Counted from the first letter of the stretch, positions 7,230-47,677 are shown. The stretch: 64,000 nt of DNA from Candidatus Nanosyncoccus sp. (GCA_045604885.1 JAZUOY010000015.1:1424-65423), one strand, 5' to 3'. Program-made: numbers and translations. Notes: generated by a model not told the origin, from the letters alone.

Positions 7230-7261
7230 TATTATAGATATAACGTAAGAGGTTATATTAA

Positions 7262-8791: not shown

Positions 8792-8823
8792 AATAATGCC
8801 CTACAGGCATTCTTTTATTTCTA

Positions 8824-8910
8824 TGGTCCCCGAGACTGGACTCGAACCAGCACATCCTTACGGACACTAGCACCTGAAGCTAGCGCGTCTACCAATTCCG
8901 CCACTCGGGG
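8824..8910 (-). tRNA. tRNA-Leu (CAG)
   Basis: Anticodon arm CTAGC-TTCAGGT-GCTAG, long variable arm, CCA end. Confidence 0.96.
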
Positions 8911-8933
8911 ACATACGATTATTTTAACATATT

Positions 8934-10781: not shown

Positions 10782-10884
10782 ACCGTTTAAGTATATCACA
10801 AATGGGCTTTTTTCTCAAATAAACCTTGCAGTATTTAAGCATAAACATTATAATAAAGGTAACAAGTCAAAAGGAAATTTTTTC

Positions 10885-12405
10885 ATGAATCCGGAAGAAG
10901 ATCAAAAAAATCCAACTCAATCACCAGATGCACAGAATACCTCAGACACTTCATCTGAGTTGCCATCTCTTGATCAAGTGGCGGCAGATCTCGTATCTGC
11001 AAGCGCAACGGAGACAACTACTCCTGAAAGTGCGACAACTCCAGAGTCGGTAACATCAACGGTACCAACCGAGCAGGCAGATGTGGCCCAACAGCCTGAA
11101 GAATCGTCAGCTGCTCAATCTAGTGAGATAACTGTTCAGTCAGAGAATAACACGACACAACCAGAAGCCAGTGTGGAGCCAGTTCTTCAGCCAGAATCAA
11201 TCGTCCAACCTGAGTCAGCTACTCAGACGGAGACCACAATCCAGCCAGAAACTCTTGCACAGCCTGATACTCCTACGACTCCGGATGTCGTATCTGATCA
11301 GCCAGCACAAACGACTGAAAGTCCAGCAACAATAGATCAGACTACGCCTAGTGCTGAAGTTGTCTCTCCGGAACCAGAGCAACAAACTTCCTTTGGGGCA
11401 GTGGAAAATCCTGATCTCTCTGGCGTTTCTCCAGTGATGGATACTAATCTTGATGGTAGTCCAGCTGAATCTTCTTCTGATGATAATGATACTTCTACGG
11501 CTAACGATACGGCCTCTACTAACCCCGAGACCAATAATGATGTTACTGACGCTTCTTCAACTGATACAGAAGCGACTACTGATAATGAGTCTCCGTCTGT
11601 TACCTCGGCAAGTTTTATTGGTGATGCGCCTAAGCCGAAGAAACAAGAGACGAATCCAGAAGATGAAGAACCGCTCGTTCCAGCAGAACCCGTTCCTGGA
11701 TCAATCGGCAGCGCCCTAGCTTACTCAGAGACTGCACCTGGTCATTCAGCTCCAGTTGCGAAGAAACAGAAACGAAAACTTTTTGCGAGGTCGTCTGATG
11801 CGTCAGAGGCAAATGCTACTACAAATGGTAAAAAGATCAGCACGAAGACTTTAATCGTCATTATTGCGACATTCGTCCTTGTAGTACTCGTTGTAATTAT
11901 ATTATTCTTTGTCTTTAGCGGGTCATCCAATAAGAATAAGACATCCACCAAGACGGAGCAACCAGTAGTAACGCAGCCTGTGGCATCTAGTCTTATTTGC
12001 GAACGTGATAGTGCAGAGGGGGCAATTTTCACGGATTATCCGGATGCTTTATCGGCAAGTGAGGAGATAATCGTTATGTATAACAATGACGTTTTGGCAA
12101 GCTTTGGTGATAATCTTACACTTTCCTATGAAACTCCTGAATTGGCGACGGCAAAAATGAATGATATTCGCACGAAATATGTAGATGCTTACACTGCCTT
12201 AAAGTTCACTTCTGATCCATTTGAGAGTTCATACAATGCTAAAGGTACGGTCGTTACAACGAACCGCCAAGCAGATGGTGAAGACATTGATGCTACGAGT
12301 GCACGGTTATTGGGCTTTACAGTGCTGAAAGGTGAAGTTTATGATGACATTGATACCCTTCAGGATCAGTATGAAACCGCTGGTTTCGCTTGCTTAACGA
12401 AGTAA
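10885..12405 (+). CDS. Membrane protein with a long acidic low-complexity N-terminus; probable start 10885 (MNPEED)
   Basis: aaggaaa upstream of the ATG; ~330 aa rich in E/T/S/P/Q; one TM helix; folded C-terminal domain. Confidence 0.8.
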   Translation: MNPEEDQKNPTQSPDAQNTSDTSSELPSLDQVAADLVSASATETTTPESATTPESVTSTVPTEQADVAQQPEESSAAQSSEITVQSENNTTQPEASVEPVLQPESIVQPESATQTETTIQPETLAQPDTPTTPDVVSDQPAQTTESPATIDQTTPSAEVVSPEPEQQTSFGAVENPDLSGVSPVMDTNLDGSPAESSSDDNDTSTANDTASTNPETNNDVTDASSTDTEATTDNESPSVTSASFIGDAPKPKKQETNPEDEEPLVPAEPVPGSIGSALAYSETAPGHSAPVAKKQKRKLFARSSDASEANATTNGKKISTKTLIVIIATFVLVVLVVIILFFVFSGSSNKNKTSTKTEQPVVTQPVASSLICERDSAEGAIFTDYPDALSASEEIIVMYNNDVLASFGDNLTLSYETPELATAKMNDIRTKYVDAYTALKFTSDPFESSYNAKGTVVTTNRQADGEDIDATSARLLGFTVLKGEVYDDIDTLQDQYETAGFACLTK

Positions 12406-12424
12406 AATAGGTTAAAATATAGAT

Positions 12425-13849
12425 ATGTCAAATATCTATCTTACCACTGCTATACCTTATGTGAACGGTGCTCCTCATATTGGACACGCCATGGATTATT
12501 TGATTGCAGATGTTTATGCGCGTTACCAAAAAGGGAAGGGTAATCAGGTGCGTTTCCAAGCTGGCACAGATGAGCATGGCAATAAGAATTATAAGAAGGC
12601 AGAAAAGTTAGGTATTCCAGTACAACAATTTGCTGACGAAAATTCTGCGAAATTTCAAGATTTTATCAAGAAGCTGGGAGTAGAAAATACAGATTTTATT
12701 CGTACGACTGATAAAGTGCACGAACAGCGTTGTCAAGAGATCTGGAAATTGTTGAGTGACCATATTTATCGTGATAGTTACGAAGGTTGGTATTGCGAAG
12801 GATGCGAAAGATTTATCACCCAGAAAGAATATGATGATAATCATGGAATTTGTCCGGATCATAACAAGTCGTATGAGAAACTAAAAGAAGATAATTATTA
12901 TCTTAGAATCGCAGATTTTAAAGATCGTATCAAGACTGCAATTGAGTCTAAGGAAATGCAGATACTACCCGATTTTAGAGCGAAGGAGATTTTGCGTTTA
13001 CTAGAGGATAGTCCGGACGTATCTATTTCGCGCCCAGTAGAGCATTTACCGTGGGGCGTGCCAGTTCCAGATGACGATGGACAGGTGATGTATGTTTGGA
13101 TTGACGCGCTTGCGAACTACATTACAGTGTTAGGGTTTCCGGATCAGGATATTTCAGAATATTGGCCAGCAGCAGCACAATTCGTCGGGAAAGATGTTTT
13201 GCGTTTTCATACGATTATTTGGCCAGCAATGCTTCTTGCGTTAGGATTACCGCTTCCAAAAGTTGTATGTTCACATGGTTTTATCTTGGCGGATGGACAG
13301 AAAATGAGCAAAAGTATTGGCAATGTAGTTGACCCGATAGAAGTCTTGGAGAGCAAAGGACTTTCTGCTTTTCGGTATTATTTTTTGCGTCATGCAGATT
13401 CTTTTGCAGACTCTGATTTTACTTGGGAAAAATATAATTCGGCATACAATAATGAGCTTGCTAACGACTTAGGTAATCTCGTTCAGCGGTTGGCGAATTT
13501 ATGTAAGAAGCAAGGTCTACCTGGTCGCCAATATGATGTACGACAAGATCCAGAATACAATGAAATCATGGATGAATTTTATTTTAGTAAGGCGTTTGAT
13601 TATATTTGGGAGAAAATTCAAGGATTAAATCGTCTGATCGACGAGAAGAAACCTTGGGAACTTGCAAAAGACGAGACTCAGCACAATCAATTAGTGCAAA
13701 TCTTAAATAATTTAGCGGATCAGTTACTACAAGTAGCGTACTTGCTACGTCCGTTCTTGCCAGATACGACCAGAGAAATTGAATCTATCTTTACTAGTGC
13801 AAAAATTATTCCGCCAAAGACGCCACTTTTTCCGAAGGCACGCGAATAA
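12425..13849 (+). CDS. metG: Methionine--tRNA ligase (short form)
   Basis: YLTTAIPYVNGAPHIGH, GTDEHG, YVWIDAL, KMSKS motifs. Confidence 0.98.
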   Translation: MSNIYLTTAIPYVNGAPHIGHAMDYLIADVYARYQKGKGNQVRFQAGTDEHGNKNYKKAEKLGIPVQQFADENSAKFQDFIKKLGVENTDFIRTTDKVHEQRCQEIWKLLSDHIYRDSYEGWYCEGCERFITQKEYDDNHGICPDHNKSYEKLKEDNYYLRIADFKDRIKTAIESKEMQILPDFRAKEILRLLEDSPDVSISRPVEHLPWGVPVPDDDGQVMYVWIDALANYITVLGFPDQDISEYWPAAAQFVGKDVLRFHTIIWPAMLLALGLPLPKVVCSHGFILADGQKMSKSIGNVVDPIEVLESKGLSAFRYYFLRHADSFADSDFTWEKYNSAYNNELANDLGNLVQRLANLCKKQGLPGRQYDVRQDPEYNEIMDEFYFSKAFDYIWEKIQGLNRLIDEKKPWELAKDETQHNQLVQILNNLADQLLQVAYLLRPFLPDTTREIESIFTSAKIIPPKTPLFPKARE

Positions 13850-13850
13850 T

Positions 13851-15668
13851 TTATTTTATAAAATACTGTTCACCAGCAGAAAGATCGTAAGTCAATAACT
13901 GATAGGATGACAATGCTGTATTCATAACTGGAGCATCTTCGCCAAAGTAATTATCGCTTAGGATTGGCTCGCTTGTACATATTTCATCTAAGAGATAGAA
14001 AGAAGTCGGTTTGGTTATTTGTAAAGTATTTAGCAGAGTATTTGGTAAACAGTTTGGTGTGGTCGTTGGTAGATTGCCAGAGAAGGTAGTGTAATTGGTA
14101 TAAATAAAATATGGTGTTAAATGAATGAGGTCAGAAACAGATTTATCATCGTTTTCATGAACTTGCATAAATACGCCAGGGCTGTGATCACCATAAAATA
14201 GAACTACCACCTTTTCGTCATAAGATTCAAGTTTCTCTATAAATTCTCCCAGAAATTCATCTGATTTATGGAGACTCATTAAGTAGGTTTCTATGGCATT
14301 TTTTTCTGCTTCATTTTCAGCATTTGTCACTTCATAATTTGGATCGCCGTACTCGTGGGGATTATATGGAGCGTGATTTTGCATAGTGATAAGTGAGATA
14401 AAATCTTTACCTTCTGTTTGCCGCATGTAATCTAGGGTTTCATTATAGGCGGAACGATCATTAATATATTCACTTTCACCTTCTTTTTCGTCATAAGAAA
14501 AATCTTTTTGTTCATGAAAATGATCAAAGCCAAGTTTTGGTAAAACAGTGTCGCGTTTATACATACCGCCGCTGAAAGGGTGGATTGTTGTGGTATTAAA
14601 ACCCTGTTCTTTTAGATAGCTTGCAAGACTTGGCACACGCGAAACATGGGAAAGTAGATTAGTGTAGGGAACTGTACGTAACCAGTAATTCGTTAGTCCG
14701 GTAATCGCTTCGTATTCTATATTAGCTGTTCCGCCTCCGTAATCTGGTGAATACATATATCCACTAAGAGTTTCTTGCTGGATTTTGTGTAGATTCGGTG
14801 TGACGTCACCACCGGTGTAATGATAGTAATCTGCGATGATGGACGGATCATAAAATGATTCATTTAGAATAATAATCAGATTGTAATCTACTTGAGAGGC
14901 TGATGTGAGGTCGTGAATGACAGTAGATTCTTGTGCCGTTAAATTATCGCGAATCGTAGCCAATTCTGCTTTGCTATATCCATCTGGGGCAGTAATAGTG
15001 AGTTTGGCAGTATTATATAAAAAACCGAGAAGGAAACCATTGTCAGCATAATTATCAGTCTGATTCCAATCAGTAAATTTACTACTGAGGAACGGTAACT
15101 CAATTTCTCGTTCTTTACCGTGATGCCGAACAAAATCCGTTGTAACAAGAAAAGCTGATAATGCTATAGCAACAATTGCGATACGTGAAACGATGCGATA
15201 TCTAGGCTCTTTTTGTAACCATTTCGTACTTAACTTGTCTAGCAATATACCTAATATTATTACGAGGATTACAGCGATAATTAAACGCATGATATCAGAA
15301 AAGTCTACGAATTTAGTTAGTGCGCCGGCTTGTGAACTTAGCTGAAAATCTTCTGGTAGAAGCGGAGTGCCACGAAAATTAAATTTAGCAATGTGAATAT
15401 AACCAAAAATTAAGATTAGAGCGGTACTAATGGAAATACTTGTAAAAATCTTTCTAACAATACCATATATAATAGTTAGTAGTGTCAGCATGATTAGAGA
15501 GTTGTACAAGAAAACTTTTGTTCGCGTAAACACAAATTCCCAAGCATCTGAAGTGTCGTTGAGAAAATGACGATATTCTAGTAGCCATGTCAAAAAGAGG
15601 GCAGCAATAACTAGAACGAACATTTTAATGACTATTTGCTTGGTGCGTGGGTTTATTTTACGGCACAT
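13851..15668 (-). CDS. LTA synthase family / membrane sulfatase-fold protein
   Basis: N-terminal TM bundle; NESF, GGGTANIEYE, TMQNHAPY, YGDHSP motifs; start codon uncertain. Confidence 0.88.
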   Translation of the reverse strand: MCRKINPRTKQIVIKMFVLVIAALFLTWLLEYRHFLNDTSDAWEFVFTRTKVFLYNSLIMLTLLTIIYGIVRKIFTSISISTALILIFGYIHIAKFNFRGTPLLPEDFQLSSQAGALTKFVDFSDIMRLIIAVILVIILGILLDKLSTKWLQKEPRYRIVSRIAIVAIALSAFLVTTDFVRHHGKEREIELPFLSSKFTDWNQTDNYADNGFLLGFLYNTAKLTITAPDGYSKAELATIRDNLTAQESTVIHDLTSASQVDYNLIIILNESFYDPSIIADYYHYTGGDVTPNLHKIQQETLSGYMYSPDYGGGTANIEYEAITGLTNYWLRTVPYTNLLSHVSRVPSLASYLKEQGFNTTTIHPFSGGMYKRDTVLPKLGFDHFHEQKDFSYDEKEGESEYINDRSAYNETLDYMRQTEGKDFISLITMQNHAPYNPHEYGDPNYEVTNAENEAEKNAIETYLMSLHKSDEFLGEFIEKLESYDEKVVVLFYGDHSPGVFMQVHENDDKSVSDLIHLTPYFIYTNYTTFSGNLPTTTPNCLPNTLLNTLQITKPTSFYLLDEICTSEPILSDNYFGEDAPVMNTALSSYQLLTYDLSAGEQYFIK

Positions 15669-35320: not shown

Positions 35321-37387
35321 GTGACATCTGAACTTATTACCTCTCAGCCAAGAATAAGAAAGGATCATGATTGGTTGGGTGACGATGTGCCAGAATTTTC
35401 TGCTGATAAGAAAGAGAAGGATTTTAGAGGCGTTTCTTTTAATAAGCATTTTGTAGAGTGCTTTTCTGACAAAATGTACGAAAAAATTCTTAGTGATAGG
35501 GAAGTATTAGCTAGTGTAGGCGACAATTATTTACATCAATATGACGATAACTCTTCCGCCTCAGCTGTCAAGCTAGCCTTTAAGGAATCACTAGACCATT
35601 ATATTTTGTCACAACTTACCAGTGAGAATACCGAAAAATTTATACAGAGTGAAGCGTTTTCAAATTATTCATCATATATCATGAATATTGCAGAAAATAA
35701 TTTCATGAAAGTTAGAAATGGCGAGTTATTTTCTGAAATTGTTGCTAATCCAGTTCTGAGAAATGAAAAAATGCGTGAGCTTATTTTGGAAAAAACATAC
35801 CCGCCAGAAAAAGCGCGACGATATAGCGATAGTATCAAAAAACAAATTGATTTTTATCAAAAAGGGCTTTCCTCAGTAGAAGAAATTATGGACAAGCGGG
35901 GGAAATTATCGCAAAAACAGGTGGATTATCTTGGTGATTATTTATATTCCAGCAAAAAATATGATGACGGATTGGCGAAGAAATTTGCAGAGTATTGTTT
36001 TAATGAGATTCATGCAGATTCTGATATTAAGCCGTCCACGCAGATGATTGGTGCGCTGACGAATTACTTTGCGTATTGTTATTCGTTGGATGAAAAGGTC
36101 AGACGGGATAGCAGATTTATTATTGCAAATTATTCTCATGAGAGGACAGACGAATCTGGCAATATTCAGAGAAAATCAGTCCATGTGGGGGTATCTACTT
36201 CATTTGGTTGCGTATTAGAACAGAATCATTTTACTCGGATGTCGCTTATGTCGGATGACTCATTGAGCAAATCGCGAACTAACACCTATAACGATATTTA
36301 TCGCTTGATGATGGTGTCATTTCACGAATTAACCCATGATCATCAGCGAAATCAAATGATGGCAGGAGATGATAGTAGCAGTAGTATGTCCTATATTTTG
36401 CATAATGTCTTGATGGAAGATAAAAGAGAATGTTTTCCACGAGTTGGGAAAGACGGCTCTATTCACGAGACATCATATTACAAGGCCAATCACGATTGTG
36501 ATGAAATAGAAATTGAGGCAGATGAAGAGGCATGGCGTCAGTGTCGAACTTTTTTAGTCAATCATCGTCAGCAATACGCTTGGGATCATCATGATGATGA
36601 TATTTATCGGCAGTATTCCGAGCAGAGAGGAAAATGTCTGGATAATGAAGAAGAAGTGCGAACGAGGCGTGCTTTTACGAGAAAAATTGATGCGACTGGG
36701 CAAGAAATGTCATATATCCAGTATGATATTGAAAACCTCAAGTCATTTGTGGCGAATGACCCAAAATTACTTCAGAGATTTCCCCAACTTAATAAATATC
36801 TTGATCAGGACGGAAATTTAAGGTCAGAATTATTATTAGAAAAGCGCATTGGGGGAATTGATACGAGTGATAATTTGTATCATCGCACGGACGATTTTGG
36901 AGTGGAAGTTGGAACTTATATAATCACTAATAACGAAGATGTGAAAAACATTATCAGTCATATTAATAACAGTACATTATCTAGTCAACAGGTGCAAAAT
37001 TTAATGACGAATCTTTGGAATATAATACATCAAAATGCGCTCAAAGTACGTCAGTTGAAGAAGGCTAATTTTGATAACTATGACGAGACCGAGACGCGTA
37101 TGGGGTTCACACCTCAAGAGATGAAAGATGCATTTTTGAAGCAATATCTCAGACAATTGTATAATTCTGTGCATATTGCAGAGGTGATACGCGGTACACA
37201 TCCAGAATTAGGAGACTATATTACTAGGCAAGAAGAGGGATATATGAGTAGTTATTATGATGAACTGCAACATGAAGGCAAAGTTAAGTACGAAGAAGCG
37301 AAGAAAATATATGACAAATATCAGCGTACGAATAATCCTGTTCTTATGAAGATTGCTACAAAAATTGCAAGAGATTATCAATTATGA
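35321..37387 (+). CDS. Large hypothetical protein with an HExxH zincin-like motif
   Basis: 688 aa, no signal peptide or TM; SFHELTHDHQ followed by EIEIEADE. Confidence 0.75.
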   Translation: MTSELITSQPRIRKDHDWLGDDVPEFSADKKEKDFRGVSFNKHFVECFSDKMYEKILSDREVLASVGDNYLHQYDDNSSASAVKLAFKESLDHYILSQLTSENTEKFIQSEAFSNYSSYIMNIAENNFMKVRNGELFSEIVANPVLRNEKMRELILEKTYPPEKARRYSDSIKKQIDFYQKGLSSVEEIMDKRGKLSQKQVDYLGDYLYSSKKYDDGLAKKFAEYCFNEIHADSDIKPSTQMIGALTNYFAYCYSLDEKVRRDSRFIIANYSHERTDESGNIQRKSVHVGVSTSFGCVLEQNHFTRMSLMSDDSLSKSRTNTYNDIYRLMMVSFHELTHDHQRNQMMAGDDSSSSMSYILHNVLMEDKRECFPRVGKDGSIHETSYYKANHDCDEIEIEADEEAWRQCRTFLVNHRQQYAWDHHDDDIYRQYSEQRGKCLDNEEEVRTRRAFTRKIDATGQEMSYIQYDIENLKSFVANDPKLLQRFPQLNKYLDQDGNLRSELLLEKRIGGIDTSDNLYHRTDDFGVEVGTYIITNNEDVKNIISHINNSTLSSQQVQNLMTNLWNIIHQNALKVRQLKKANFDNYDETETRMGFTPQEMKDAFLKQYLRQLYNSVHIAEVIRGTHPELGDYITRQEEGYMSSYYDELQHEGKVKYEEAKKIYDKYQRTNNPVLMKIATKIARDYQL

Positions 37388-37428: not shown

Positions 37429-38751
37429 ATGAAAAAATTTAATACCTCTCCAATTTCTGGCATGCAAGAGCTTTTGCCGCCTTTGCAAGCTGTTTTCAAT
37501 AATTATAAAGCAAAAATTGCTGAGGTATATCATCTGCATGGATTCCAAAATATAGAAACGCCTATGATTGATCGCAATGAGATTTTATTTGCGAAAGCTG
37601 GCGGTGATACTGAGAAGCAAATTTATCGCGTCATTAAGACGGATGAGACGGCGGAAGCGTCGTCGCAATCACTTCGTTTTGACCATACGGTGCCGCTAGC
37701 AAGATATGTTGTGGAGCATGAAAGCGAGCTAAATTTTCCGTTTCGCGTTTCTCAAATTGGGCGCAATTTTAGAGGGGAACGAGCACAAAAAGGGCGTTAT
37801 CGCGAATTCTATCAGTGTGATGTGGATGTAATTGGGCGCAATGCTTTACCGATTTTCTACGATGCACAGGTAATTGATACTTTTTATTCTGCAGTCAGTT
37901 CATTCGTAAAGACGCCAGTAAGAATCCGCCTCAATAATCGTAAATTCGTCTCTGGTTTTATTGAGGCGCTTGGAATATCGGATTTAGCGAGTGATGTTTA
38001 TAGTATTATCGACCATGCAGAGAAAGTTCCAGAAGAAAAAACAATTTCTTTTTTGAGGGAACTTAATATCCCAGAAGAAATTGTTGTAAAAATTACAACA
38101 TTTATTCATACGCACGGTAATTATGACGAGATTGTTACCATGTTAAAGGAAATTGGTATGATGGATGCAGACGGCATGGTAGAAAATGTGCAAATGAGAG
38201 ATGGTCTAGCGGAGCTAAAAATTGTTACGGGTGAGCTAGCTAAAATTGGGATGAAAGCTGAAAATGTGGAAATTGATTTAAAGATCGTGCGCGGGCTGGA
38301 TTATTATACGGGAACTGTGTTTGAGGGAATCTTACCAGAGTACCCACAGGTAGGATCCATTGGTGGCGGTGGCCGTTATGATAATCTTGCAAGTAATTTT
38401 TCTGATCAAAAGTTTCCTGGAGTTGGTGCGTCTATTGGTTTGTCGCGGCTATTTTATATTTTGACGGAAAATAATCTTCACGACGAAGAATCCAGGACAC
38501 CAATAGATTATGCAATTATTCCGATGACGTCAGAGCAGAATGAGATGGCATATAAGATAGCGGATATAATTCGTAACCGTGGTGAATCTACGGATATTAT
38601 TTCAGTGGAAAAGAAACTCAGCGATACAATGAAAATTGCTTCACGAGTAGCAAGCTATGGAATTGTACTTGGTGAAAATGAAGTCAAAAATAAATCTTGC
38701 ATGGTAAAAAAATTTGCAACTGGTGATCAGAATTTGATGAAACTAAGCTAA
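37429..38751 (+). CDS. hisS: Histidine--tRNA ligase
   Basis: GGDTEKQIY, LRFDHTVP, GRYREFYQCD, VRGLDYYTG, GGGGRYD motifs. Confidence 0.98.
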   Translation: MKKFNTSPISGMQELLPPLQAVFNNYKAKIAEVYHLHGFQNIETPMIDRNEILFAKAGGDTEKQIYRVIKTDETAEASSQSLRFDHTVPLARYVVEHESELNFPFRVSQIGRNFRGERAQKGRYREFYQCDVDVIGRNALPIFYDAQVIDTFYSAVSSFVKTPVRIRLNNRKFVSGFIEALGISDLASDVYSIIDHAEKVPEEKTISFLRELNIPEEIVVKITTFIHTHGNYDEIVTMLKEIGMMDADGMVENVQMRDGLAELKIVTGELAKIGMKAENVEIDLKIVRGLDYYTGTVFEGILPEYPQVGSIGGGGRYDNLASNFSDQKFPGVGASIGLSRLFYILTENNLHDEESRTPIDYAIIPMTSEQNEMAYKIADIIRNRGESTDIISVEKKLSDTMKIASRVASYGIVLGENEVKNKSCMVKKFATGDQNLMKLS

Positions 38752-38790
38752 TTTGACTTCCTATTCCTACTTTCATCTTATCATTCTAGC

Positions 38791-38997
38791 ATGCGTTCGT
38801 ATCCACTATCGTTTGTGTTGGGAGGATACTTTCGCTTGGATAATAGCAAATTATATAATCAAAAAGCATACGGTAACTATTGGTCTACTACTGTCTACTC
38901 GGACGCTAATGGGTACAATCTAGAAACAAGTGGTTCATCCGTCAATCCGACAGACTATAGCAGAAAACTTCATGATTGGGGAATTCGTTGCGTCTAA
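38791..38997 (+). pseudogene. Orphan CLec/FISUMP-like C-terminal cassette 1
   Basis: RSYPLSFVLGG...YWSTT...WGIRCV; no N-terminal domains or signal peptide. Confidence 0.7.
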
Positions 38998-39437
38998 GTT
39001 CTACTATTGATTCGGTCTTATCCACTGTCGTATGTATTGTCAGGTACTTTCTACTGGAATAGTAGTCAATTATACAATCAAGGTGTCTATGGTAGTCGGT
39101 GGTCTAGCACGATATATTCCAAAAATAATGGATGTCGTTTACTTATGGATAGCTCTACTGTTGATCCAGCAGATAATGTTGGCAAATTCTATGGATTCAC
39201 TGTTCGTTGAAATTAAAAATATCATGCTAATTGCGATATATAACGAAGCGCCCTACCAACATATTTATTAAAATAATCCGACGTTCCGACAGAGGAATCA
39301 AGCAGCATCATGTAGTATGCTCGTGCACGAGAATTGACAGTAGCAGGATACCAACAACCGTGAACTCCCTGATTATATACCCTACCAGTATCCCAGCCGA
39401 AACTCCCTCCCAACACAAACGATAGTGGATACGAACG
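38794..39437. repeat. Perfect 32-bp inverted repeat (38794-38825 / 39406-39437)
   Basis: cgttcgtatccactatcgtttgtgttgggagg and its exact reverse complement. Confidence 0.97.
39007..39210 (+). pseudogene. Orphan CLec/FISUMP-like C-terminal cassette 2
   Basis: RSYPLSYVLSG...RWSST...YGFTVR then TGA where cassette 1 has TGC (Cys). Confidence 0.7.
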
Positions 39438-39440
39438 TAT
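39222..39440 (-). pseudogene. Orphan CLec/FISUMP-like C-terminal cassette 3 (inverted)
   Basis: Frame extends upstream of the tracked ORF as IRSYPLSFVLGG...VGRALRYI; collinear with cassettes 1 and 2. Confidence 0.7.
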
Positions 39441-39465
39441 ACTAGCAGATGATATATAAAGGGAT

Positions 39466-40170
39466 CTATCTTTTTAGGCCAGCGTCTAAGTATTTTTTGA
39501 CATAATCCCATCCCCAATTATTGTCAAAGCCGCTAGTTGTGAAATTGCCAAATTTAAAATATGGTAGTCCGCCACCAATTAAATTCCAAGCGCGTTCGGT
39601 ATCCTCTGTTACTTTAGACAAGAGCTTGTGCTCAGAAATACAACTTTCAAAAGTCTCACTTAAACCGATCGACTGACCAATTTTCAGCCAGTAGTTATCT
39701 GGTAAATCTTCTATTGGTTCTGAGGTTTTTGATACGCCGATTCCTTGTGATTGATAATCATCCCAGAGTGCTGCCAGTGCAGCATGATAGTATTCCCAGA
39801 ATTTCCCCTCGTCTTTTGCGCAATAAATTGCTTCAGCGCTATTGCGGGACATTTCGCTATGATTTTCGCCGTATTCGTAGAGTATATCTGTTACGCGAAC
39901 TTCATATAAAATATCTTTCCCGACGATATAATCTTTTTGGAATTCGTCCTCATGCTTCATGATTGCGCGCGAAAAAGCGCTACAGTATGGACAGGCAAGA
40001 TCAGTATACATAATATAATAGTTTTTTGCATCTAATGCTCCGATAGTAGCGTTTTCGTCCCAGACACTATCTGAATGATTGGTCTTTGTAGAAGAGCTAT
40101 AAATAAATAATGCCACCAGCAAAACCGCAATAACACCAATAATAATCCATTTAATGGCTTTTTTCATCAT
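39466..40170 (-). CDS. Membrane-anchored DsbA/thioredoxin-fold protein; probable start 40170 or 40167
   Basis: YTDLACPYC active site, AEAIYCA, GGGLPYF; AAGGAGG RBS. Confidence 0.88.
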   Translation of the reverse strand: MMKKAIKWIIIGVIAVLLVALFIYSSSTKTNHSDSVWDENATIGALDAKNYYIMYTDLACPYCSAFSRAIMKHEDEFQKDYIVGKDILYEVRVTDILYEYGENHSEMSRNSAEAIYCAKDEGKFWEYYHAALAALWDDYQSQGIGVSKTSEPIEDLPDNYWLKIGQSIGLSETFESCISEHKLLSKVTEDTERAWNLIGGGLPYFKFGNFTTSGFDNNWGWDYVKKYLDAGLKR

Positions 40171-40795
40171 CCTCCTTTTTCTTCTGACGCCACTGTTCAT
40201 CTTTTATTATAACATAGCTCTCTACGCCAACCCTTTTGATTGACAGTAATAAGATGATAATTGCGACACCAGTTAAAATGCCTGATATTGCTCCGGCTAT
40301 CGCATAACTTCCACTAGAGAAAATAGAACCGATAATGGGCGTAATTAAGGCAGTGCCACAAGTAGGGCAGCCACTTCCAAGTAATGCAAGCCCAGCTGCA
40401 ATACCGGCGTTCTGCACAGATGAGGCAGAATCATTTTGTTCGTTTTGCTTAGGTTTGGTATTATTGAGTCGTTTTTTCCAGACTAGAACAATGAGAGAAA
40501 TAAGAGTTGCCTGTAAAAACGTAATAGAAAATAATAATAGCCAGTCCCAGAAAGTCTTGCCAACTCCAAAAAGTGATAAGAGGCTATCTCTTAAGATGGT
40601 AATTTTGCCTTCTAGATCGGTAGCGAAGAACAAATTAAGAGGTCCAAATCCGCCCGATAAGAGGCTAAGTAGGATACCAAATATTACAAAAACCATTAAA
40701 AAAACAATCCAGAAACGAAGTCTTCTAGTGGCAAGTATGATGCCGAGTATGGCAAGATGCCATTCATCACACCATTTTGCGATCTTTTTTTGCAT
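40151..40795 (-). CDS. Integral membrane protein with a CxxC motif (GCPTCG)
   Basis: Four hydrophobic segments; overlaps the DsbA-like gene. Confidence 0.8.
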   Translation of the reverse strand: MQKKIAKWCDEWHLAILGIILATRRLRFWIVFLMVFVIFGILLSLLSGGFGPLNLFFATDLEGKITILRDSLLSLFGVGKTFWDWLLLFSITFLQATLISLIVLVWKKRLNNTKPKQNEQNDSASSVQNAGIAAGLALLGSGCPTCGTALITPIIGSIFSSGSYAIAGAISGILTGVAIIILLLSIKRVGVESYVIIKDEQWRQKKKEDDEKSH

Positions 40796-41144: not shown

Positions 41145-41876
41145 ATGGAACGCTTTTCTAGAGAAAAATACGAAGATTTTTTAAAAAAGATAGATTTAGC
41201 GAAATATCGAGAGAAGTATGCTAAGGTGAAGACTGTGGAGATGGATTTGCCATACGAAATTCAGGCTTTGCCAACAATTTATGCTGAGTACTGGGATAAC
41301 GTGAACCATAGAGAGGAACCACTTTCCTATGAGGAATATTACAAGTTATATTGGAATTCTTGTAAAGATGAGATTATGGCATTTCGTAAGAAAACTGGTT
41401 TTGGCGAAGATTGTGATTGTTATGAACGTGGCTTAGAAGCAAGAATCTATCGCACCTGGGCATCTTTAATTACTCAGATTCAGGGTGGATACGTAGCTGA
41501 GGAGGTTTTTGGCAAGGGAAGCGTCAGAATGAGCCCTGAGCTTGATCGTAAGAAAATTGATATTATGATCGTTAATAAGGATGGCAGTGAGCGTTTGCGG
41601 ATTCAAGTCAAAAAAGTTACTCATCGTCCAGAAATTGCCAGGATGCATAAGAATGTGAGAAATGAAAATGGTTCCGTAGATTTGTATTATGTAGTACCAT
41701 CTCCGCGTAATTATGAGCATCCGACCTATCTCATTAATGGTCGTAATCACAAAAGAGGCGAATTACGTCCATTTACGAAAGATTTCGTGAAATGGAATCC
41801 GGCGACCGCAACTATGGATAGACTAGATAATGGATTTATCATTTTCACAAAGAATGCTTTTTTGGGACTAGAATAA
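41145..41876 (+). CDS. TaqI-family type II restriction endonuclease
   Basis: KY..VKTVEMDLP, GLEARIYRT..S..TQ and PELD...ID...IQVKK match my recollection of TaqI-family motifs. Confidence 0.8.
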   Translation: MERFSREKYEDFLKKIDLAKYREKYAKVKTVEMDLPYEIQALPTIYAEYWDNVNHREEPLSYEEYYKLYWNSCKDEIMAFRKKTGFGEDCDCYERGLEARIYRTWASLITQIQGGYVAEEVFGKGSVRMSPELDRKKIDIMIVNKDGSERLRIQVKKVTHRPEIARMHKNVRNENGSVDLYYVVPSPRNYEHPTYLINGRNHKRGELRPFTKDFVKWNPATATMDRLDNGFIIFTKNAFLGLE

Positions 41877-43062
41877 TTTGGTAGTCGGGGCTTAGCCCCT
41901 TTTGCGTTAAAAAGGATCGTAGGCGATAGTCTAGAATTTGGTCAATGCTCGGTTTGATGCCCAGCTCCTGACATTTTTTGTAAGCAGTAGATTTTCGTGA
42001 GACAATCTCTGGGATTTGGACAAGGATATATTTATTATTGCGTCCATCTTCCAGGTTGGTCTCGTAAACTGCTTGACCAGTTGATCCAGACCCAGCAAAA
42101 AAATCTAAAATGATAGAGTTAGAAGTATTAGTCATGCGAATAAAATATTTTAGCATTTCTACTGGCTTCGGAGTATCAAAAATCCCTTGTAATCCTAATC
42201 TTTTGAGGTCATGTGTGCCTTGCCGTGAATAAAAATTAAGAATTGATGGAACATTATCTTCACTTTCTGTAAGGTATTTGATGGCGTAAGGGCGACCGTT
42301 TTTGAAATTGAGGCGATGTTTTTTCGCAAGTTCTATAAAATGTTCATCGGTAGCCCACCCTCTTGTCGGTAAAGGACTGAGGTGAAGATTGATAGACGGA
42401 ATATCGACTGCTCGGGGGGTACTAGGAGTAGAAAGATCTACGGCGAAAAAAATCCTACCCTTGTTATCTAACTGTGAATAATTTCTCAGCCACGTGATGT
42501 TTTGCTCATGACAGATAGACTTGATTCGTTTCGTAAGAGTTTTTTCTGCAGCGGATCTGCCTTGTTGCTTGAAAATAGTTTTAATTTCATTTTGAAGATC
42601 ATTGATCATTTGTTTTTGCTCCGGAATATCCGTGCGATGTACTATAAATTTCCGAATATTCTTCCTGTTTTTTGCATAACAGAGGACATATTCATGAACG
42701 GTGTTAATTAATTTGGAGTTACTACGCTGAGCTTGTTTGGTGATAAAGGTGCCAATAAAATTTTCGCTTCCAAAAACGCCATCACAGCAGATTCTCAGAT
42801 GAGGAAATTCGTTATCGTCTATAGAAATTAAAATCACCGCATCATCCGCCATGAGTCTTCGAGCTGCCTCTAAACGTGCGTGTATAAAAGCGACCCAATC
42901 ATTGCTGGTATTCTTATCTTTGTAGCTTTTCTGGGTCTGAGTATTATATGGTGGGTCGATGTAGATTAAGTGAATTGCATTCTGGTATTTCGTTAAAAAA
43001 TCAGAATCTTGCATTACATCAAGATTGTCTCCAATATAGACTTCATGATTAAGCGATTTCAT
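41845..43062 (-). CDS. Beta-class (Mod-like) amino DNA methyltransferase; probable start 43062
   Basis: IYIDPPYN precedes TPKP and LDFFAGSGSTG; convergent with and overlapping the REase. Confidence 0.92.
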   Translation of the reverse strand: MKSLNHEVYIGDNLDVMQDSDFLTKYQNAIHLIYIDPPYNTQTQKSYKDKNTSNDWVAFIHARLEAARRLMADDAVILISIDDNEFPHLRICCDGVFGSENFIGTFITKQAQRSNSKLINTVHEYVLCYAKNRKNIRKFIVHRTDIPEQKQMINDLQNEIKTIFKQQGRSAAEKTLTKRIKSICHEQNITWLRNYSQLDNKGRIFFAVDLSTPSTPRAVDIPSINLHLSPLPTRGWATDEHFIELAKKHRLNFKNGRPYAIKYLTESEDNVPSILNFYSRQGTHDLKRLGLQGIFDTPKPVEMLKYFIRMTNTSNSIILDFFAGSGSTGQAVYETNLEDGRNNKYILVQIPEIVSRKSTAYKKCQELGIKPSIDQILDYRLRSFLTQKGLSPDYQIILVPKKHSL

Positions 43063-43102
43063 TAAGGTCATTATAACAAAAAAGGTCTATTGCGACCAAT
43101 TT

Positions 43103-43187
43103 TGGTAGCCGAGACGGGACTTGAACCCGTATGAATTTCTTCATTCGATTTTAAGTCGAACGCGTATACCAATTCCGCCACTCGGCC
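43103..43187 (-). tRNA. tRNA-Leu (TAA)
   Basis: Anticodon arm TTCGA-CTTAAAA-TCGAA, long variable arm, CCA end. Confidence 0.96.
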
Positions 43188-43440
43188 AATTTTGCTTGGA
43201 GGACTATTCAACCCAAATGTTGAACCATCCCTTATTATTTTATCAGAATATCTTTGTAGTGACAAGTCGGCGGAGTTAATGGAATATACTCCTCTCTCTA
43301 GAATAGAGGTGGAAAGGGCTAGGGCGATGGAGGATTATGTCTTATAACGTACCAACTAAAACCTAATTAAACCATTTGTTACCTAGCATAGTTCTCCCAC
43401 GTCTCTCTCAAGCGCCCGAAGGGCGCTGTATTGGTTAGCC

Positions 43441-43579
43441 TGGTGAAATCGGGCGCTCATCAAACCCGTTTGTTTGGAATGATAGTGTATATCTAATACT
43501 GGAGATTACTTTGGTTGGAGTGCGGTCCTCTTCACAGGCAGGTATTGTCTTTTTAATGGTGAAATCGGGCGCTCATCAA
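43441..43579 (+). repeat. 23-bp direct repeat tggtgaaatcgggcgctcatcaa (43441-43463 / 43557-43579)
   Basis: Exact match at 116-bp period; weaker similarity continues for about 25 bp. Confidence 0.93.
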
Positions 43580-43844
43580 GCCCTTCCTGTTTAGATATAT
43601 GAGTATACCCTACCTAGGGACTCCCAGGCTACCCCGTTTAGGACGAAATACGTGCCTTATTTGCTAGCATCTTTGGTGATTTCGTCTGGTAGTATCACTC
43701 GTGTAGTTTCTTTGGATTTATTTTACTAACAGATTAGTTCATATGATAGCAGGGTTTTCCCGCCCGGCCTGCTTTTAATTAAAACACTCTACCGCTAGCA
43801 TTGTTTCTCTGATGTTTTTTCTTGGTGGCTGTTGATGCTAGTGC

Positions 43845-43873
43845 TTGCCATGATTAAAATTATCTGGTATAAT
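43845..43873 (+). promoter_or_regulatory. Sigma70-type promoter
   Basis: TTGCCA-17 bp-TATAAT with a TGn extension. Confidence 0.8.
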
Positions 43874-43881
43874 CATGGCAT

Positions 43882-44003
43882 CATCCAATTCCCACATTTA
43901 CAACTCAAACGGTAACCCAGAGACCTACATAGCGTCCAGAAAGGATGTCACGTAGGTACATAGGGCACTATGCTCTAGGTTACCGAAAAGTGGGAGTTGG
44001 ATG
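43882..44003 (+). ncRNA. Candidate structured RNA / leader (multibranch)
   Basis: Nested stems 43882-43895/43990-44003, 43910-43922/43973-43985, 43923-43928/43952-43957, 43959-43963/43968-43972. Confidence 0.6.
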
Positions 44004-44053
44004 CTAACACCTCGTGGCATCCTTTTTGTGGATGTTGCAGAAAGAAGGATACT

Positions 44054-44887
44054 ATGCAAGACCACAGCGATAATCAACAACCCCAGCCTTACCGAGTCAG
44101 AGTTGGCTGTTTCGTGACACTTAGAAACAATGATGATAATCGCGTCACTAAGTATAAAGTAGTAAGGTCGCTATACTCGTCAAATAATGCGTGGGCGGAA
44201 ACAAGCATTAAGGAGACTCCTACTTCTGGGAGTCTTTCTGTAAGTTCCCCACTTGGAGCTAGTCTGATTGGAAAAAAAGCTGGTGACATTGTTGGCAAAT
44301 ACAAAGTCATGCTAATAGAAGGTGGCGACCATGTAGTGCAAAATATTCAAGACTCGTATGAGCAGGATACCGCTGATAAAGCTAATAAGCTAAAAATGCT
44401 ATTGGAAAAGATACGGTCTGGAGAATGGGTCAAAGCATACGTTACGCGCATTCATCACGTCTGCATCCCAGTCAAAACTCGTCGCGCCAACATTAAGACC
44501 TCATTCCTTCCTGACGGTGTTATGGAGTCTATCGTTATATCGAACATGGCAGCCGAGGCAACAAATCTCTATAGGATAGATTTGTTTCTCTATCTCGACG
44601 ATGACCATGAAATTGGTGCCATGGCGGAAATGCTAATTGAGCGAGACACAGTGAGTGTTCTATGTAGCGACGTTCATAATCCATTGCCAAAAAATTGCTT
44701 AAACGAGAATTATGATTATGTCGTTGCTGATGAACAATCCTCTGAAGAGGGGATGGAATTAGTTCATGGTTTAGAAGTAAAATTATCGCCTGAAGACAGT
44801 AGCTTCACATGTAGGACCGCGCCTCACTCGACAACTAATCACCACTACATGAGAATAGTCCACGAGGACAGTTGTGAGTGTTATTAG
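44054..44887 (+). CDS. Protein with an N-terminal GreA/GreB C-terminal-like domain plus an unknown domain; probable start 44054
   Basis: VRVGCFVTL...LSVSSPLGASLIGKKAGDIV; aagga RBS before ATG 44054. Confidence 0.7.
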   Translation: MQDHSDNQQPQPYRVRVGCFVTLRNNDDNRVTKYKVVRSLYSSNNAWAETSIKETPTSGSLSVSSPLGASLIGKKAGDIVGKYKVMLIEGGDHVVQNIQDSYEQDTADKANKLKMLLEKIRSGEWVKAYVTRIHHVCIPVKTRRANIKTSFLPDGVMESIVISNMAAEATNLYRIDLFLYLDDDHEIGAMAEMLIERDTVSVLCSDVHNPLPKNCLNENYDYVVADEQSSEEGMELVHGLEVKLSPEDSSFTCRTAPHSTTNHHYMRIVHEDSCECY

Positions 44888-45467
44888 TGTTTTTGGAAAA
44901 ACGGAATACGCAAGTAGTAGCACGATTGGCGTCGCTATGTTTTTCGGTATACTTGCAACAGTTTTTTTATTTTTCCTAGCTAGCTCTAAAAACCACAACA
45001 AAACGACTAGAAATAGAAAGCACAACACCTTTGTGTATCGACCTCGCTCGATCAATGATGTACAGGAGCACCAGAGAATTAGACGCTGGGAGATAAAGCG
45101 CGCTGCTTTTGAGGAACAAAAGAAAACACCATTCTTCAAAGACTGGAAGCGCGAGCAATATCAGTGTCAATATGGTAAGTGTGCTTGGTGTAGGAAGTCG
45201 ATAGACCTTCATTCGCCCGATACCCAAGTCGATCATATTAAGCCATTGATGTGGTGGGGGACTAATGAGTACGATAACTTGGTTCTAGCTTGTAAAGAAT
45301 GTAATGAGGAAAAAGGCGATAGTCAATTTGGCTGGGCTGGTGCTAAAGGCATGCCTGGCGAGAATAGAAAACCAGCCTGGATTAGGCCTAATAGATGCTG
45401 TAGAAATTTCAAAGAGCAGAACTCTCAGACAGTATCATATACTACTCTGAACTCAGACAAGCCTTAG
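44874..45467 (+). CDS. Membrane-anchored HNH endonuclease
   Basis: N-terminal TM helix; CAWC...VDHIKP...GTNEYDNLVLACKECNEEKG. Confidence 0.88.
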   Translation: MSVISVFGKTEYASSSTIGVAMFFGILATVFLFFLASSKNHNKTTRNRKHNTFVYRPRSINDVQEHQRIRRWEIKRAAFEEQKKTPFFKDWKREQYQCQYGKCAWCRKSIDLHSPDTQVDHIKPLMWWGTNEYDNLVLACKECNEEKGDSQFGWAGAKGMPGENRKPAWIRPNRCCRNFKEQNSQTVSYTTLNSDKP

Positions 45468-45569
45468 AGAGCCTCTTATGGCCTCACAGAGGGTGTTTTG
45501 ACGGGGTGTTTTTGAGGTTGTCTTTCTCTTCGGAGGCTTTAGCCGACGAAAGCGCGTTAGCGCTTGCCC

Positions 45570-45598
45570 TTGCCTTAGTGTTTTAGACTTGATACAAT
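45570..45598 (+). promoter_or_regulatory. Sigma70-type promoter with no downstream ORF
   Basis: TTGCCT-17 bp-TACAAT with a TGn extension. Confidence 0.72.
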
Positions 45599-45604
45599 GA
45601 AGTC

Positions 45605-45990
45605 CTACACAACGGTATCAGGTAAGGAACGCTGGTACTGTGCTAGCTGAAATAATGCTAGGAGGAAACGCACCTTCCCGTGGTGGGCTGGCTAATGATT
45701 TCCTCGGATAGGTTGCCCATTGCTAAAACAGCCTTGATGGTAGCAGTAATGCCTGGACTAGTAGGCATGAAGTATCATCTGCCACACTATTGTAGCAAAA
45801 GGCGGACAATGGTTTTAGCGAATAATCCGATTCCAAGCCTGACGAAAGCAGGTTGCCGATGGACCTTCTAGCTGCCTTGGCACTAGGTCTGTAGGCAGAG
45901 GGATTATTTGCTATGCCAAAAAAAGCTAGCATAAATACAGGCGAGCAACATGAAGCTGGGAGAAACCTCGGCAAGCTGGTGACCTACCTT
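45605..45990 (+). ncRNA. Candidate large structured ncRNA (~385 nt)
   Basis: About ten stems, many with G-U pairs, downstream of a clean promoter; no credible ORF. Confidence 0.55.
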
Positions 45991-46108
45991 AAGTCTATAG
46001 AAGAGAAAAATATAACGCGATTCAAGGGTGATTCTTCCAGTAGTATGGTTGAGCCTGTTAGCGGCATCACAATTCTCTTTTAGAAGTGTTTCTGGTATAA
46101 TGATGGTA

Positions 46109-47677
46109 ATGTCATTGCTGCCAGGAGAGATAGATAAGACCAAGCTACGTTACATTGTTTACGTGCGCAAATCTACTGATGAGAAGGGAAAGCAGGAGAG
46201 GTCTGTTGAGGACCAAATCGCTGATTGCCTAGACTTAGCCAAACGTAGAGGGTTAAATATTATTGGTGAGCCTATTGTTGAAAAGCGTTCTGCTAAGGTT
46301 GATGGAGGCAGACCACTTTTTGCTAAAATGATTAAATTAATTCGTGACGGTAAGGCTGATGGCATTATTTCCTGGCATCCGGATCGTTTGTCTCGTAATC
46401 CGATTGATGCGGCCACGATTGTAGACATGCTGGACAAGAACATAATCAAAGACCTTGCCTTCCCTACTTGTGAGTTTTCAAACGACTCCAGCGGCAAGAT
46501 GCTACTCAATATATTATTCGCTATCTCAAAGCAATATTCGGAGCATATCAGCGAGGGTGTTACTCGTGGGCTTCGTAGAGGTCTTCAAGAAGGAAAATCT
46601 CAAGGTCGTTACGTCTGGGGTTATACCCGTAGCAAAGAAACTGGACTATATGAGCCAAGTGAATATTTTGAGATTGTCCAAGAAGCATGGGAGATGAAGG
46701 TGAACGGTGCTACGGATGCCGCAATTCTAAAGTTCTTAAAGAAAAATAATCTACGGAGAGCGGTCGAATCAAATCCTGGAAGATTTATAGAGCCTGTCAA
46801 GGAAACCCCAAAGAACATCTTCAAGAACCCAATTTACTATGGTGTTTTGGAGCAGGCAGGACAAGAAGTGGACCTAATTGAAGTTACTGGTGGCGCTTTT
46901 CAGCCTATGATTACTTATGAAACCTTTGCCAAAGTACAAGCTATGGAACGTAGCGGCAAATCGCATGGTGGGCGCAAGAAATCTGGTGGTATTTTCTACC
47001 CACTAAAGCACATGGTAACTTGTGGCGTCTGCAACCAAACTATGGTCGTCTATAAAAGCCGTAGCGGCCATGGGAAACGTGCTAACTACTTGTATTTTGA
47101 GTGTAGGAATAAAGATTGCACTCGTAGTCCCAAGGCTATAAGAGCAAGGGAAATATTTGAGCCGCTATTTGAAGCTGTCCGCCAGTTGCAGTTTACTGAG
47201 GAAGAAATAGAGAAATACAACCAAGAGATTGATAGCTTTAGCGAAGAGAGAATTGTTGAGCTACGTCAGGAAAAGAATAGTATAACTGCCGCTATTGCCC
47301 ACAAGAACAAAGAACTTGAGAAACTGTCTCTTAGCACACCCAATTTGACTAGTAGAGCATTAACTCTAATACGAAAGAGGATTGATTCGCTGTCCAATGA
47401 ACTAGATGAACTTGAGGAGAGCTCTAAATCTATTGATGCTCAAATAAAATCAGCTCAGCGAAGTAAGGTTTCTACTGAGCAAGTGTTGAACCTCCTAAAA
47501 ACGCTTCCTGACAAGATGGAGAATGGCTCCGCCGCTGAAAAAGATGCGATTGCCCGATTATTGTTATTGAACCTCACTATTGACGCACAAAAAAGGCCTC
47601 ATTTCCTCTGGAAAGAGCCTTTTGCTAGTCTGCTTGAATCCCGAAAAGGTGATTCTGGAGGCGCCTACCGGAATTGA
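46109..47677 (+). CDS. Large serine recombinase (resolvase, recombinase, zinc ribbon and coiled-coil domains); probable start 46109
   Basis: YVRKST catalytic motif, DRLSR, CGVC...C...C zinc ribbon, coiled coil; own TG-TATAAT at 46096-46101; last codons are antisense to tRNA-Cys. Confidence 0.93.
   Translation: MSLLPGEIDKTKLRYIVYVRKSTDEKGKQERSVEDQIADCLDLAKRRGLNIIGEPIVEKRSAKVDGGRPLFAKMIKLIRDGKADGIISWHPDRLSRNPIDAATIVDMLDKNIIKDLAFPTCEFSNDSSGKMLLNILFAISKQYSEHISEGVTRGLRRGLQEGKSQGRYVWGYTRSKETGLYEPSEYFEIVQEAWEMKVNGATDAAILKFLKKNNLRRAVESNPGRFIEPVKETPKNIFKNPIYYGVLEQAGQEVDLIEVTGGAFQPMITYETFAKVQAMERSGKSHGGRKKSGGIFYPLKHMVTCGVCNQTMVVYKSRSGHGKRANYLYFECRNKDCTRSPKAIRAREIFEPLFEAVRQLQFTEEEIEKYNQEIDSFSEERIVELRQEKNSITAAIAHKNKELEKLSLSTPNLTSRALTLIRKRIDSLSNELDELEESSKSIDAQIKSAQRSKVSTEQVLNLLKTLPDKMENGSAAEKDAIARLLLLNLTIDAQKRPHFLWKEPFASLLESRKGDSGGAYRN

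Follow-up and report, generated by a model that had tools for sequence, protein, structure and literature searches.

The stretch of DNA analyzed here, referred to as the window, comprises 64,000 nucleotides of a 70.8-kb contig from Candidatus Nanosyncoccus sp. (GCA_045604885.1, JAZUOY010000015.1:1424-65423). Between hisS and a gene for a DsbA-like protein it carries an array of three short coding units, each starting with the peptide motif RSYPLS. An earlier note on this sequence had described three collinear units at this place, two on the plus and one on the minus strand, and had taken them for silent donor copies of adhesin tips; number, collinearity, orientation and position of the units are confirmed. 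The features of the locus are:

37429-38751, plus strand: hisS, the left flank; the closest histidyl-tRNA synthetase (HisRS) relatives are 70-75% identical and named Candidatus Saccharibacteria
38786-38825, plus strand: left arm of the 5′ handle, encoding (S-M)RSYPLSFVLGG; 38794-38825 match the right arm exactly, as do 7 of the 9 bases further upstream
38791-38997, plus strand: unit 1, ATG, RSYPLSFVLGG and 54 codons to Arg65, then Cys-Val-stop (IRCV and stop)
39013-39210, plus strand: unit 2, RSYPLSYVLSG... to FTVR, then a TGA stop
39437-39222, minus strand: unit 3, preceded by ATA at 39440-39438; RSYPLSFVLGG... to ALRYISQLA, then a stop
39406-39445, minus strand: right arm of the 5′ handle, a perfect repeat over 39406-39437
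39466-40200, minus strand: gene for a DsbA-like protein with a thioredoxin fold, the right flank

All six reading frames of the window were scanned with a profile built from the units. It matches these three alone, and a fourth copy is absent. Each unit is made up of 11 motif residues and 54 codons up to the invariant Arg65, without an indel in any of the three, and 21 of the 65 columns of the gap-free alignment are invariant. The units are open over 65-71 codons and have no internal stop. Unit 1, with the motifs YWSTT and GIRCV, is the only one with every hallmark of the family (W30, RC). Unit 2 keeps RWSST, and the codon for the conserved Cys of the family is replaced by a TGA stop; in unit 3, Tyr replaces this Cys and the YWSST position is scrambled and reads CWYPAT. 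The anatomy described before stands, with the addition that two of the units look partly degenerate, which had been overlooked. Units 2 and 3 are convergent, the mechanically called open reading frame (ORF) of unit 2 starts with TTG at 39007, and the 3′ ends of the three units have just TTCGTT (6 bp) in common.

The observation that the units lack an N-terminal body, a signal peptide and a clear ribosome-binding site was verified, and a start context is missing as well. A Shine-Dalgarno sequence is absent 5′ of unit 1, while the dsbA-like neighbor has AGGAGG. The scan for promoters and terminators revealed nothing above shuffle expectation that serves the units, and no family matched in an Rfam scan of the region. 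Unit 1 is preceded by the stop codon of hisS and unit 3 by that of the dsbA-like gene. Unit 1 follows hisS at a distance of ~40 nt in the same direction and in the same reading frame, with the TAA of hisS, 13 sense codons and M-RSYPLS in succession (38749-38793). Read-through of the hisS stop would fuse HisRS to unit 1, and the shared frame is probably a coincidence (1-in-3 chance).

The family of the units was determined by database searches. Since a word-indexed protein search with the three units found one outside relative, an exhaustive search of the representative library was needed; with the unit profile it yielded 2091 related proteins of three kinds. The first kind comprises giant surface proteins with several FISUMP domains, e.g., P0016. 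Proteins of the second kind are short and consist of 2-6 units in one frame (...GFALRSTSARRYPLSYVYSG...) without a signal peptide. Those of the third kind are ~680 aa long, with an N-terminal membrane anchor, beta-rich domains and a single C-terminal FISUMP domain that ends in the unit. In P0119, which belongs to the third kind, the C-terminus reads SEGL, then RSYPLSFVFSGNYYWGHGSLYYQ, and ends with GFGVRCVSL (in a shorter rendering GL, then RSYPLSFVFSGNYYW, and again GFGVRCVSL at the end). P0119 has 234 relatives, many with a precomputed PF09603 assignment and several named Candidatus Saccharibacteria. A full-length gene with the 5′ motif, on which the donor reading of the earlier note depended, is therefore present in relatives. 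An unrelated full-length protein from another metagenome also matches unit 1 (E = 2e-14).

The assignment of the tips to FISUMP, likewise proposed before, is in line with the Pfam comparison and the family motifs. Unit 1 aligns to positions 125-186 of the 187 positions of PF09603 (Fib_succ_major) with 16.5 bits and E = 0.011, which is below the cut-off of 33.9, and the full-length relatives P0151 and P0155 cover the whole domain (positions 5-186) with E = 2e-6 and 1e-5, also below the cut-off. Units 2 and 3 gave no match to PF09603, and the NCBIfam search (TIGR02145 family) was negative. The motifs of the family are G.YWSST, G(F)xxRC(V) at the C-terminus and CPxGW(R/Q)LP in the N-terminal half of the domain. 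The latter reads CPKGWTLP in P0119 and CPLGWQLP in P0069 and is absent from the window, so the units are half-domains. The protein of unit 1 has no database record, and in a sequence search of the PDB no solved structure matched. Among public sequencing runs, none was found to contain the region.

In related contigs this very segment is the target of diversity-generating retroelements (DGRs), in which a reverse transcriptase (RT) copies a template repeat (TR) into a variable region (VR). In contig L046 the anchored gene of P0151 is followed by an accessory gene of 283 aa, an RT of 393 aa and a copy of the last ~200 bp of the gene on the opposite strand. The RT has the motifs YVDD and IGNLSSQ and matches RVT_1 with E = 4e-6, which is below the cut-off. 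The repeat lies inverted 2.2 kb downstream of the target and differs from it only at adenines of the repeat, with AAC/AAT in the repeat and TAC, CGC, GAC, GGC or GAT in the target. Judged from its sequence, this is a textbook DGR. Contigs L056 and L059 show the layout of L046 and contig L058 a variant of it, so that VR/TR pairs were verified in four contigs. The template repeats, all on the strand opposite to RT and target, are:

L046, 14258-14455
L056, 14567-14761
L059, 14350-14631

In these three contigs the template is located downstream of the RT and forms, together with the VR, an inverted repeat spaced by 2 kb. In L058 (DGR at 5476-15572) the proximal VR is part of an anchorless whole-domain ORF of 243 aa (7784-8515, minus strand) and a second VR-like copy lies inside a cassette. 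The anchored gene of this contig, P0172 (10001-12259), has no match to the template. It is followed by 4-5 whole-domain cassettes, each frame-shifted against the previous one ('SSTARWQ' equals 'FIDGTVAG' one base off).

The homology between VR and TR starts inside the RSYPLS motif, at '(P)LSFVFSG' in L046 and 'YPLSYIF' in L056, and ends just past the stop codon. The units of the window start within a few bases of this point. They therefore have the size of a variable region, and their 5′ boundary is that of the variable region. Unit 1 is 44% identical to the C-terminus of the DGR target P0151. With regard to the C-type lectin fold of DGR variable proteins, in the AlphaFold2 model of P0151 the mean pLDDT (predicted local distance difference test) is 69.7 and falls below 50 in the tip residues 625-673, and a Foldseek search of the PDB with this model found Ig-like chains only, attributed to the stalk domains. 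Taken together, the sequence comparisons make it very probable that the units are stand-alone copies of the variable-region segment, the last ~67 residues and C-terminal FISUMP half, of Saccharibacteria adhesins. An origin from a decayed giant with several FISUMP domains (P0016-like) was rejected, as mixed orientation, exact starts at the handle and a separate stop per unit do not fit.

The earlier claim that the segment belongs to the class diversified by DGRs is thus verified, and so is the absence of an RT from the window: phmmer searches of its six frames with the RT and the accessory protein of L046 found nothing, and RVT_1 was absent from the Pfam scans of 46 of the 48 window ORFs of at least 150 aa. 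The further statement that this epibiont manages without a DGR finds no support as a generalization. The lineage uses DGRs on exactly this segment, the cassettes of another Saccharibacterium carry a DGR signature (see below), and the window is merely without an RT. Nor does the occurrence of differences at all four bases bear on a DGR origin, for this argument compares VRs with each other and not with a template.

The 5′ ends of units 1 and 3 form a perfect inverted repeat of 32 bp (38794-38825 and 39406-39437; handle sequence CGTTCGTATCCACTATCGTTTGTGTTGGGAGG), which can be lengthened to 41 bp if 2 mismatches are allowed. For the 32-bp motif, two exact copies stand against an expectation of 0.00, and for a looser 20-mer three copies against 0.08, which rules out chance. 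Unit 2 has a variant form of the handle, in which 8 of 33 bases differ from that of unit 1. The bodies of units 1 and 3 are 54% identical in register, with a proportion of synonymous differences (pS) of 0.63, i.e., near saturation. Among the three units body identity is 51-54% (~46% nucleotide divergence), and the proportion of nonsynonymous differences (pN, 0.37-0.43) is lower than pS (0.63-0.81) in all three pairs. From pN < pS and the lack of indels and internal stops it follows that the units diverged under constraint at the protein level. By our own arithmetic, given pS = 0.63 in the bodies, the chance of no synonymous change over the 11 handle codons is ~1e-4. Identical 5′ ends beside saturated bodies point to some process at the DNA level that keeps the handles identical. 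Between genomes the handle is kept as protein and varies synonymously, e.g., with TCT, AGC or AGT as Ser codon, which points to homology-driven and not site-specific recombination. An exact-pattern scan of the JGI metagenome contigs for the handle of the window (TATCCACTNTCGTWTGTNTTG) gave 17 loci, none of which encodes a unit, so that all are chance matches.

Stand-alone cassettes of this type occur widely among Saccharibacteria of the animal gut, in part in larger numbers. A peptide-motif scan of species-representative genomes matched in two Saccharibacteria metagenome-assembled genomes (MAGs) from sheep ileum only. For RGIG5736 (JAFWHE01, L002-L028), 99 distinct units were identified in ~200 kb fetched, at 25 or more loci, so that the MAG holds at least 99. 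The arrays have 2-10 units in both orientations, most without a start codon, and no unit is located inside an ORF of more than 190 aa. The cassettes fall into several classes: RSYPLS cassettes with the native upstream linker or with an array linker, a second FISUMP subtype, and whole-domain copies. With the profile of the N-terminal half-domain no full-length gene was detected in RGIG5736, only an anchorless whole-domain fragment at a contig end, and the search of ~220 kb of this MAG for RT and accessory gene was negative. Contig ends adjoin ~21 of the 27 cassette loci, and the 5.7-kb contig L022 carries units at either end. The fragmentation of this assembly apparently results mainly from the arrays. 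Contigs L047, L055 and L057 also end at or just past the tip segment.

The RGIG5736 units share several conserved blocks. Among 51 collinear RSYPLS units, 13 hypervariable codons have the form NNC/NNT, with entropies of 1.7, 1.4 and 0.64 bits at positions 1, 2 and 3. Scaffold codons show 0.40, 0.35 and 0.72 bits, their position 3 varying about twice as much as the others, and the scaffolds are, as far as sequence can tell, under purifying selection. In a subfamily of 22 units, 54% of the pairwise differences fall in positions 1-2 of the 13 hypervariable codons, and A is present in nearly every multi-state column. Furthermore, at 12 of the 16 hypervariable codons the L058 template has AAY (Mann-Whitney p = 1e-6). 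The NNC/NNT pattern and this correspondence argue for a descent of the RGIG5736 cassettes from DGR-mutagenized sequence. Differences at non-adenine sites as well (identity of 92% beyond the hypervariable positions) show that these cassettes have not all been copied recently from a single template.

Other Saccharibacteria MAGs contain in-frame tandem arrays annotated as hypothetical proteins, in which loss of the Cys is the rule (...ALRSTSARRYPLS...). P0003, P0006 and P0010 (MBR5408769.1, MBQ3470075.1 and MBR5408847.1), two of them from one MAG, have 3-4 tip units in one frame and no signal peptide and are probably cassette arrays mis-called as genes. A head-to-head module recurs at L001 8287-8640 and in L006, L015, L016, L019 and L027. 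It consists of a second-subtype cassette (NPTDPNAGTNRTNAVSRDN...GRAVRCV) and an RSYPLS cassette with native linker (SWSYLFTTYGYGDNESG), which read outward from a shared centre of ~30 bp. This module, not the single unit, seems to be the copied entity.

Two relatives provide indirect evidence for exchange at the handle. In L047, which is syntenic with the DGR loci, the anchored gene of P0155 is followed by three inverted in-frame cassettes and the contig end. Gene and cassettes have a 5′ block of ~50 bp (2 mismatches to an inverted cassette) and a 3′ block of 13 bp in common, and their bodies are ~50% identical; the window has this architecture too. Contigs L001 and L006, assemblies of two strains of one species with a cassette locus beside pilM/ftsA, are 96.7% identical over 5.6 kb. 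Their flanks and the adjoining B cassette are ~98-100% identical, and two cassettes are replaced as a whole, the breakpoints lying at the handle and the end of the unit.

We interpret the array as a small store of alternative adhesin tips that would be used by recombination at the 5′ handle, a reading to which we assign a probability of about 45%. The cassettes would descend from DGR-diversified variable regions, and the handle of 32-41 bp, encoding RSYPLS(F/Y)VLGG, would serve as the substrate for recombination. If an anchored gene and a cassette crossed over at their handles, the gene body would be joined to a new tip with its own stop codon; with inverted copies the crossover would be an inversion, as in a shufflon, and gene conversion would be possible where 3′ homology is also present. 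Within the array, recombination of the unit 1 handle with the unit 3 handle would invert the intervening 580 bp (38826-39405), which would explain both the mixed orientation and the identical handles beside saturated bodies. A crossover of the whole tip is suggested because the homology is one-sided, each unit has its own stop codon, the orientation is mixed and the inverted handles are identical. The exchange would be shufflon-like in geometry and probably homology-driven, the latter because the handle varies synonymously between genomes. We infer that this array is still in use and has a partner gene. Retro-insertion of DGR cDNA, which may also have dispersed the cassettes and is attractive for units of template size, was considered as a dispersal route and not adopted.

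Three known kinds of system are related to the array of orphan VR-equivalent cassettes: DGR targets, silent-cassette systems and shufflons. With DGR variable regions (Bordetella phage BPP-1 Mtd, Treponema TvpA, Legionella LdtA, DGRs of the Candidate Phyla Radiation) the units share homology to the Saccharibacteria VR/TR, the 5′ boundary at RSYPLS, a conserved scaffold with variable contact positions and, in the cassettes of a relative, the NNC/NNT codons. They differ from them in that RT, template repeat, adenine-only pattern and a common 3′ initiation site (initiation of mutagenic homing, IMH) are missing from the window, and in that the units lie outside a full-length gene. Term searches in two DGR surveys, one of which reports multiple VRs or TRs per element, found no dispersed arrays of anchorless VR-sized cassettes.

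Silent-cassette systems (Neisseria pilE/pilS, Borrelia vlsE/vls, Mycoplasma genitalium MgPa/MgPar, Treponema pallidum tprK) likewise have promoterless partial copies with open frames, conserved blocks around variable stretches, and arrays plus dispersed loci, which together account for a few per cent of a small genome. The head-to-tail arrays in one frame resemble the vls cassettes, and L047 offers an expression-type gene with adjoining inverted cassettes. Unlike in these systems, the homology here is not found in blocks on both sides but is essentially one-sided (32-41 bp at the 5′ end, 6 bp at the 3′ end in the window) and each cassette has its own stop, so that a single crossover of the whole tip fits better than segmental conversion; moreover, the cassettes appear to be derived from retroelement-mutagenized sequence. 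Of the recombinational tip swap proposed before, the exchange as such thus finds indirect support in relatives (the L047 handle, the L001/L006 exchange), whereas gene conversion is hard to reconcile with 6 bp of 3′ homology. Shufflons and invertible tips (R64 pilV with Rci; the phage Mu G and P1 C segments with Gin/Cin; Mycoplasma pulmonis vsa with HvsR) resemble the array in having alternative C-terminal segments in both orientations, a repeated start site and an own stop. Convergent alternative coding segments bounded at their 5′ ends by inverted repeats are given by units 1 and 3 and by many RGIG5736 pairs. In contrast to shufflons, the window has neither a constant 5′ gene part that reads into the repeat nor an adjoining dedicated recombinase, and the repeat is longer (32-50 bp), conserved as protein and synonymously variable between genomes.

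Several findings weigh against a store of tips in use. A stop replaces the Cys codon in unit 2, and unit 3 has lost both the Cys and YWSST, which suggests relaxed constraint. The 3′ ends share TTCGTT only, which makes two-sided gene conversion implausible, and if a distant gene took part in a one-sided crossover, large parts of the chromosome would be inverted or lost. Neither the unit profile nor the profile of the N-terminal half-domain detected an anchored or full-length FISUMP gene in the window. No recombinase adjoins the array, and the serine recombinase encoded in the window has no counterpart beside arrays elsewhere. L001 and L006 are short-read metagenome assemblies, which can be chimeric at repeats. 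Finally, the closest relatives (HisRS 70-75% identical) have no cassettes between hisS and dsbA: in six contigs hisS is followed by an rsmD-like methyltransferase gene and the dsbA-like gene (minus strand). For the rsmD-like 16S methyltransferase of these relatives (L049, L053) no ortholog exists in the 64-kb window, which has just a KsgA-type paralog (33% identical, 8934-9704). As the relatives carry a methyltransferase gene at this site and not cassettes, the array is a lineage-specific arrival that replaced a gene.

The most serious alternative, which is doubtful without being far-fetched, regards the array as a decaying relic, i.e., a leftover or stray DGR or cassette locus between hisS and dsbA that is out of use, with the identical handles resulting from a recent inverted duplication or conversion without function. 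The damaged motifs of units 2 and 3 (TGA at the Cys codon; Cys to Tyr and scrambled YWSST), the lack of RT, template repeat and full-length gene in 64 kb, the missing common 3′ block, the methyltransferase gene in place of cassettes in the closest relatives and the number of three units compared with ~100 in RGIG5736 would all be expected under this explanation. Neutral decay, however, would have produced several stops or frameshifts at ~46% divergence, while all three frames are open over 65-71 codons without an indel and pN is below pS. The perfect 32-bp handle is likewise at odds with synonymous sites near saturation elsewhere, and the loss of the Cys, being the rule in tandem arrays of other MAGs, may mark a cassette boundary and not decay.

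It is improbable that the units are accessories of a DGR elsewhere in the genome, as remote variable regions or spare templates rewritten by mutagenic retrohoming. They do span the segment of the verified VR/TR pairs, the RGIG5736 cassettes carry the signature of adenine mutagenesis, and L058 sets a precedent with its proximal VR in the anchorless 243-aa ORF and a VR-like copy in a cassette. Yet differences among the units extend to every codon position and to sites other than adenine, with a body identity of just 51-54%, so that the units were not rewritten from one template; they have no common 3′ end that could serve as IMH, they are not rich in Asn/AAY (6 Asn in unit 1 compared with 15 in the L046 template), and RT and accessory gene are missing from the window. 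A self-contained invertible small gene, in which the ATG at 38791 and the handle are fixed and inversion alternates the bodies of units 1 and 3 to give two peptides of 68-75 aa by hisS read-through, is very improbable, since the ATG three bases before the handle, the inverton-like flanking by inverted handles and the co-directional position of unit 1 40 nt downstream of hisS are outweighed by the missing Shine-Dalgarno sequence, promoter, signal peptide and adjoining invertase, by half a FISUMP domain being unlikely to fold alone, and by homologous cassettes elsewhere being mostly without a start codon.

The close neighbors of the array are housekeeping or restriction-modification genes. To the right a probable mobile island (41145-47677) follows with:

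41145-41876: TaqI-like endonuclease
41845-43071, minus strand: N6/N4 DNA methylase
GreA-like gene
44874-45467: HNH endonuclease
46028-47677: large serine recombinase of 549 aa, 6.6 kb from the array and the sole recombinase in the window

The serine recombinase was considered as driver of the inversion, which is unsupported, as no homolog was found near the arrays of other loci. To the left, between the gene for uracil phosphoribosyltransferase and hisS, an ORF of 688 aa (35321-37387, plus strand) has an HExxH motif (FHELTHDHQ) and no Pfam match. The closest relatives (L048, L050, L051) have a small DUF5684 gene in its place, so this ORF is a second lineage-specific difference, adjoining the array. 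By its sequence, the source of the window would be a Saccharibacterium without a close sequenced relative.

The picture at the level of the family is of more interest than the array of three units. More speculatively, and with considerable doubt, a two-tier system may be envisaged for animal-associated Saccharibacteria, in which a DGR would write random residues into FISUMP tips, sometimes in anchorless copies, and the products would be kept as dozens to ~100 promoterless cassettes in a genome of ~1 Mb and redeployed into anchored adhesins by recombination at the handle; the window would be a small outpost with no DGR in view. A full-text search of the literature on Saccharibacteria and DGRs found no description of such a cassette system. 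On the practical side, the arrays break short-read assemblies, as shown by the share of loci at contig ends (~21/27), and tandem units annotated as 'hypothetical proteins' probably do not represent real proteins.

For Saccharibacteria, which live as obligate epibionts, little is known about how hosts are recognized and exchanged, and a hypervariable adhesin tip readily suggests itself as a candidate for this role. The same tip segment is diversified by DGRs in several lineages; in others it is found as very large families of orphan cassettes, of which one MAG contains 99 or more. Provided that the cassettes are in use, they would link retroelement mutagenesis with cassette recombination, two mechanisms so far treated separately.

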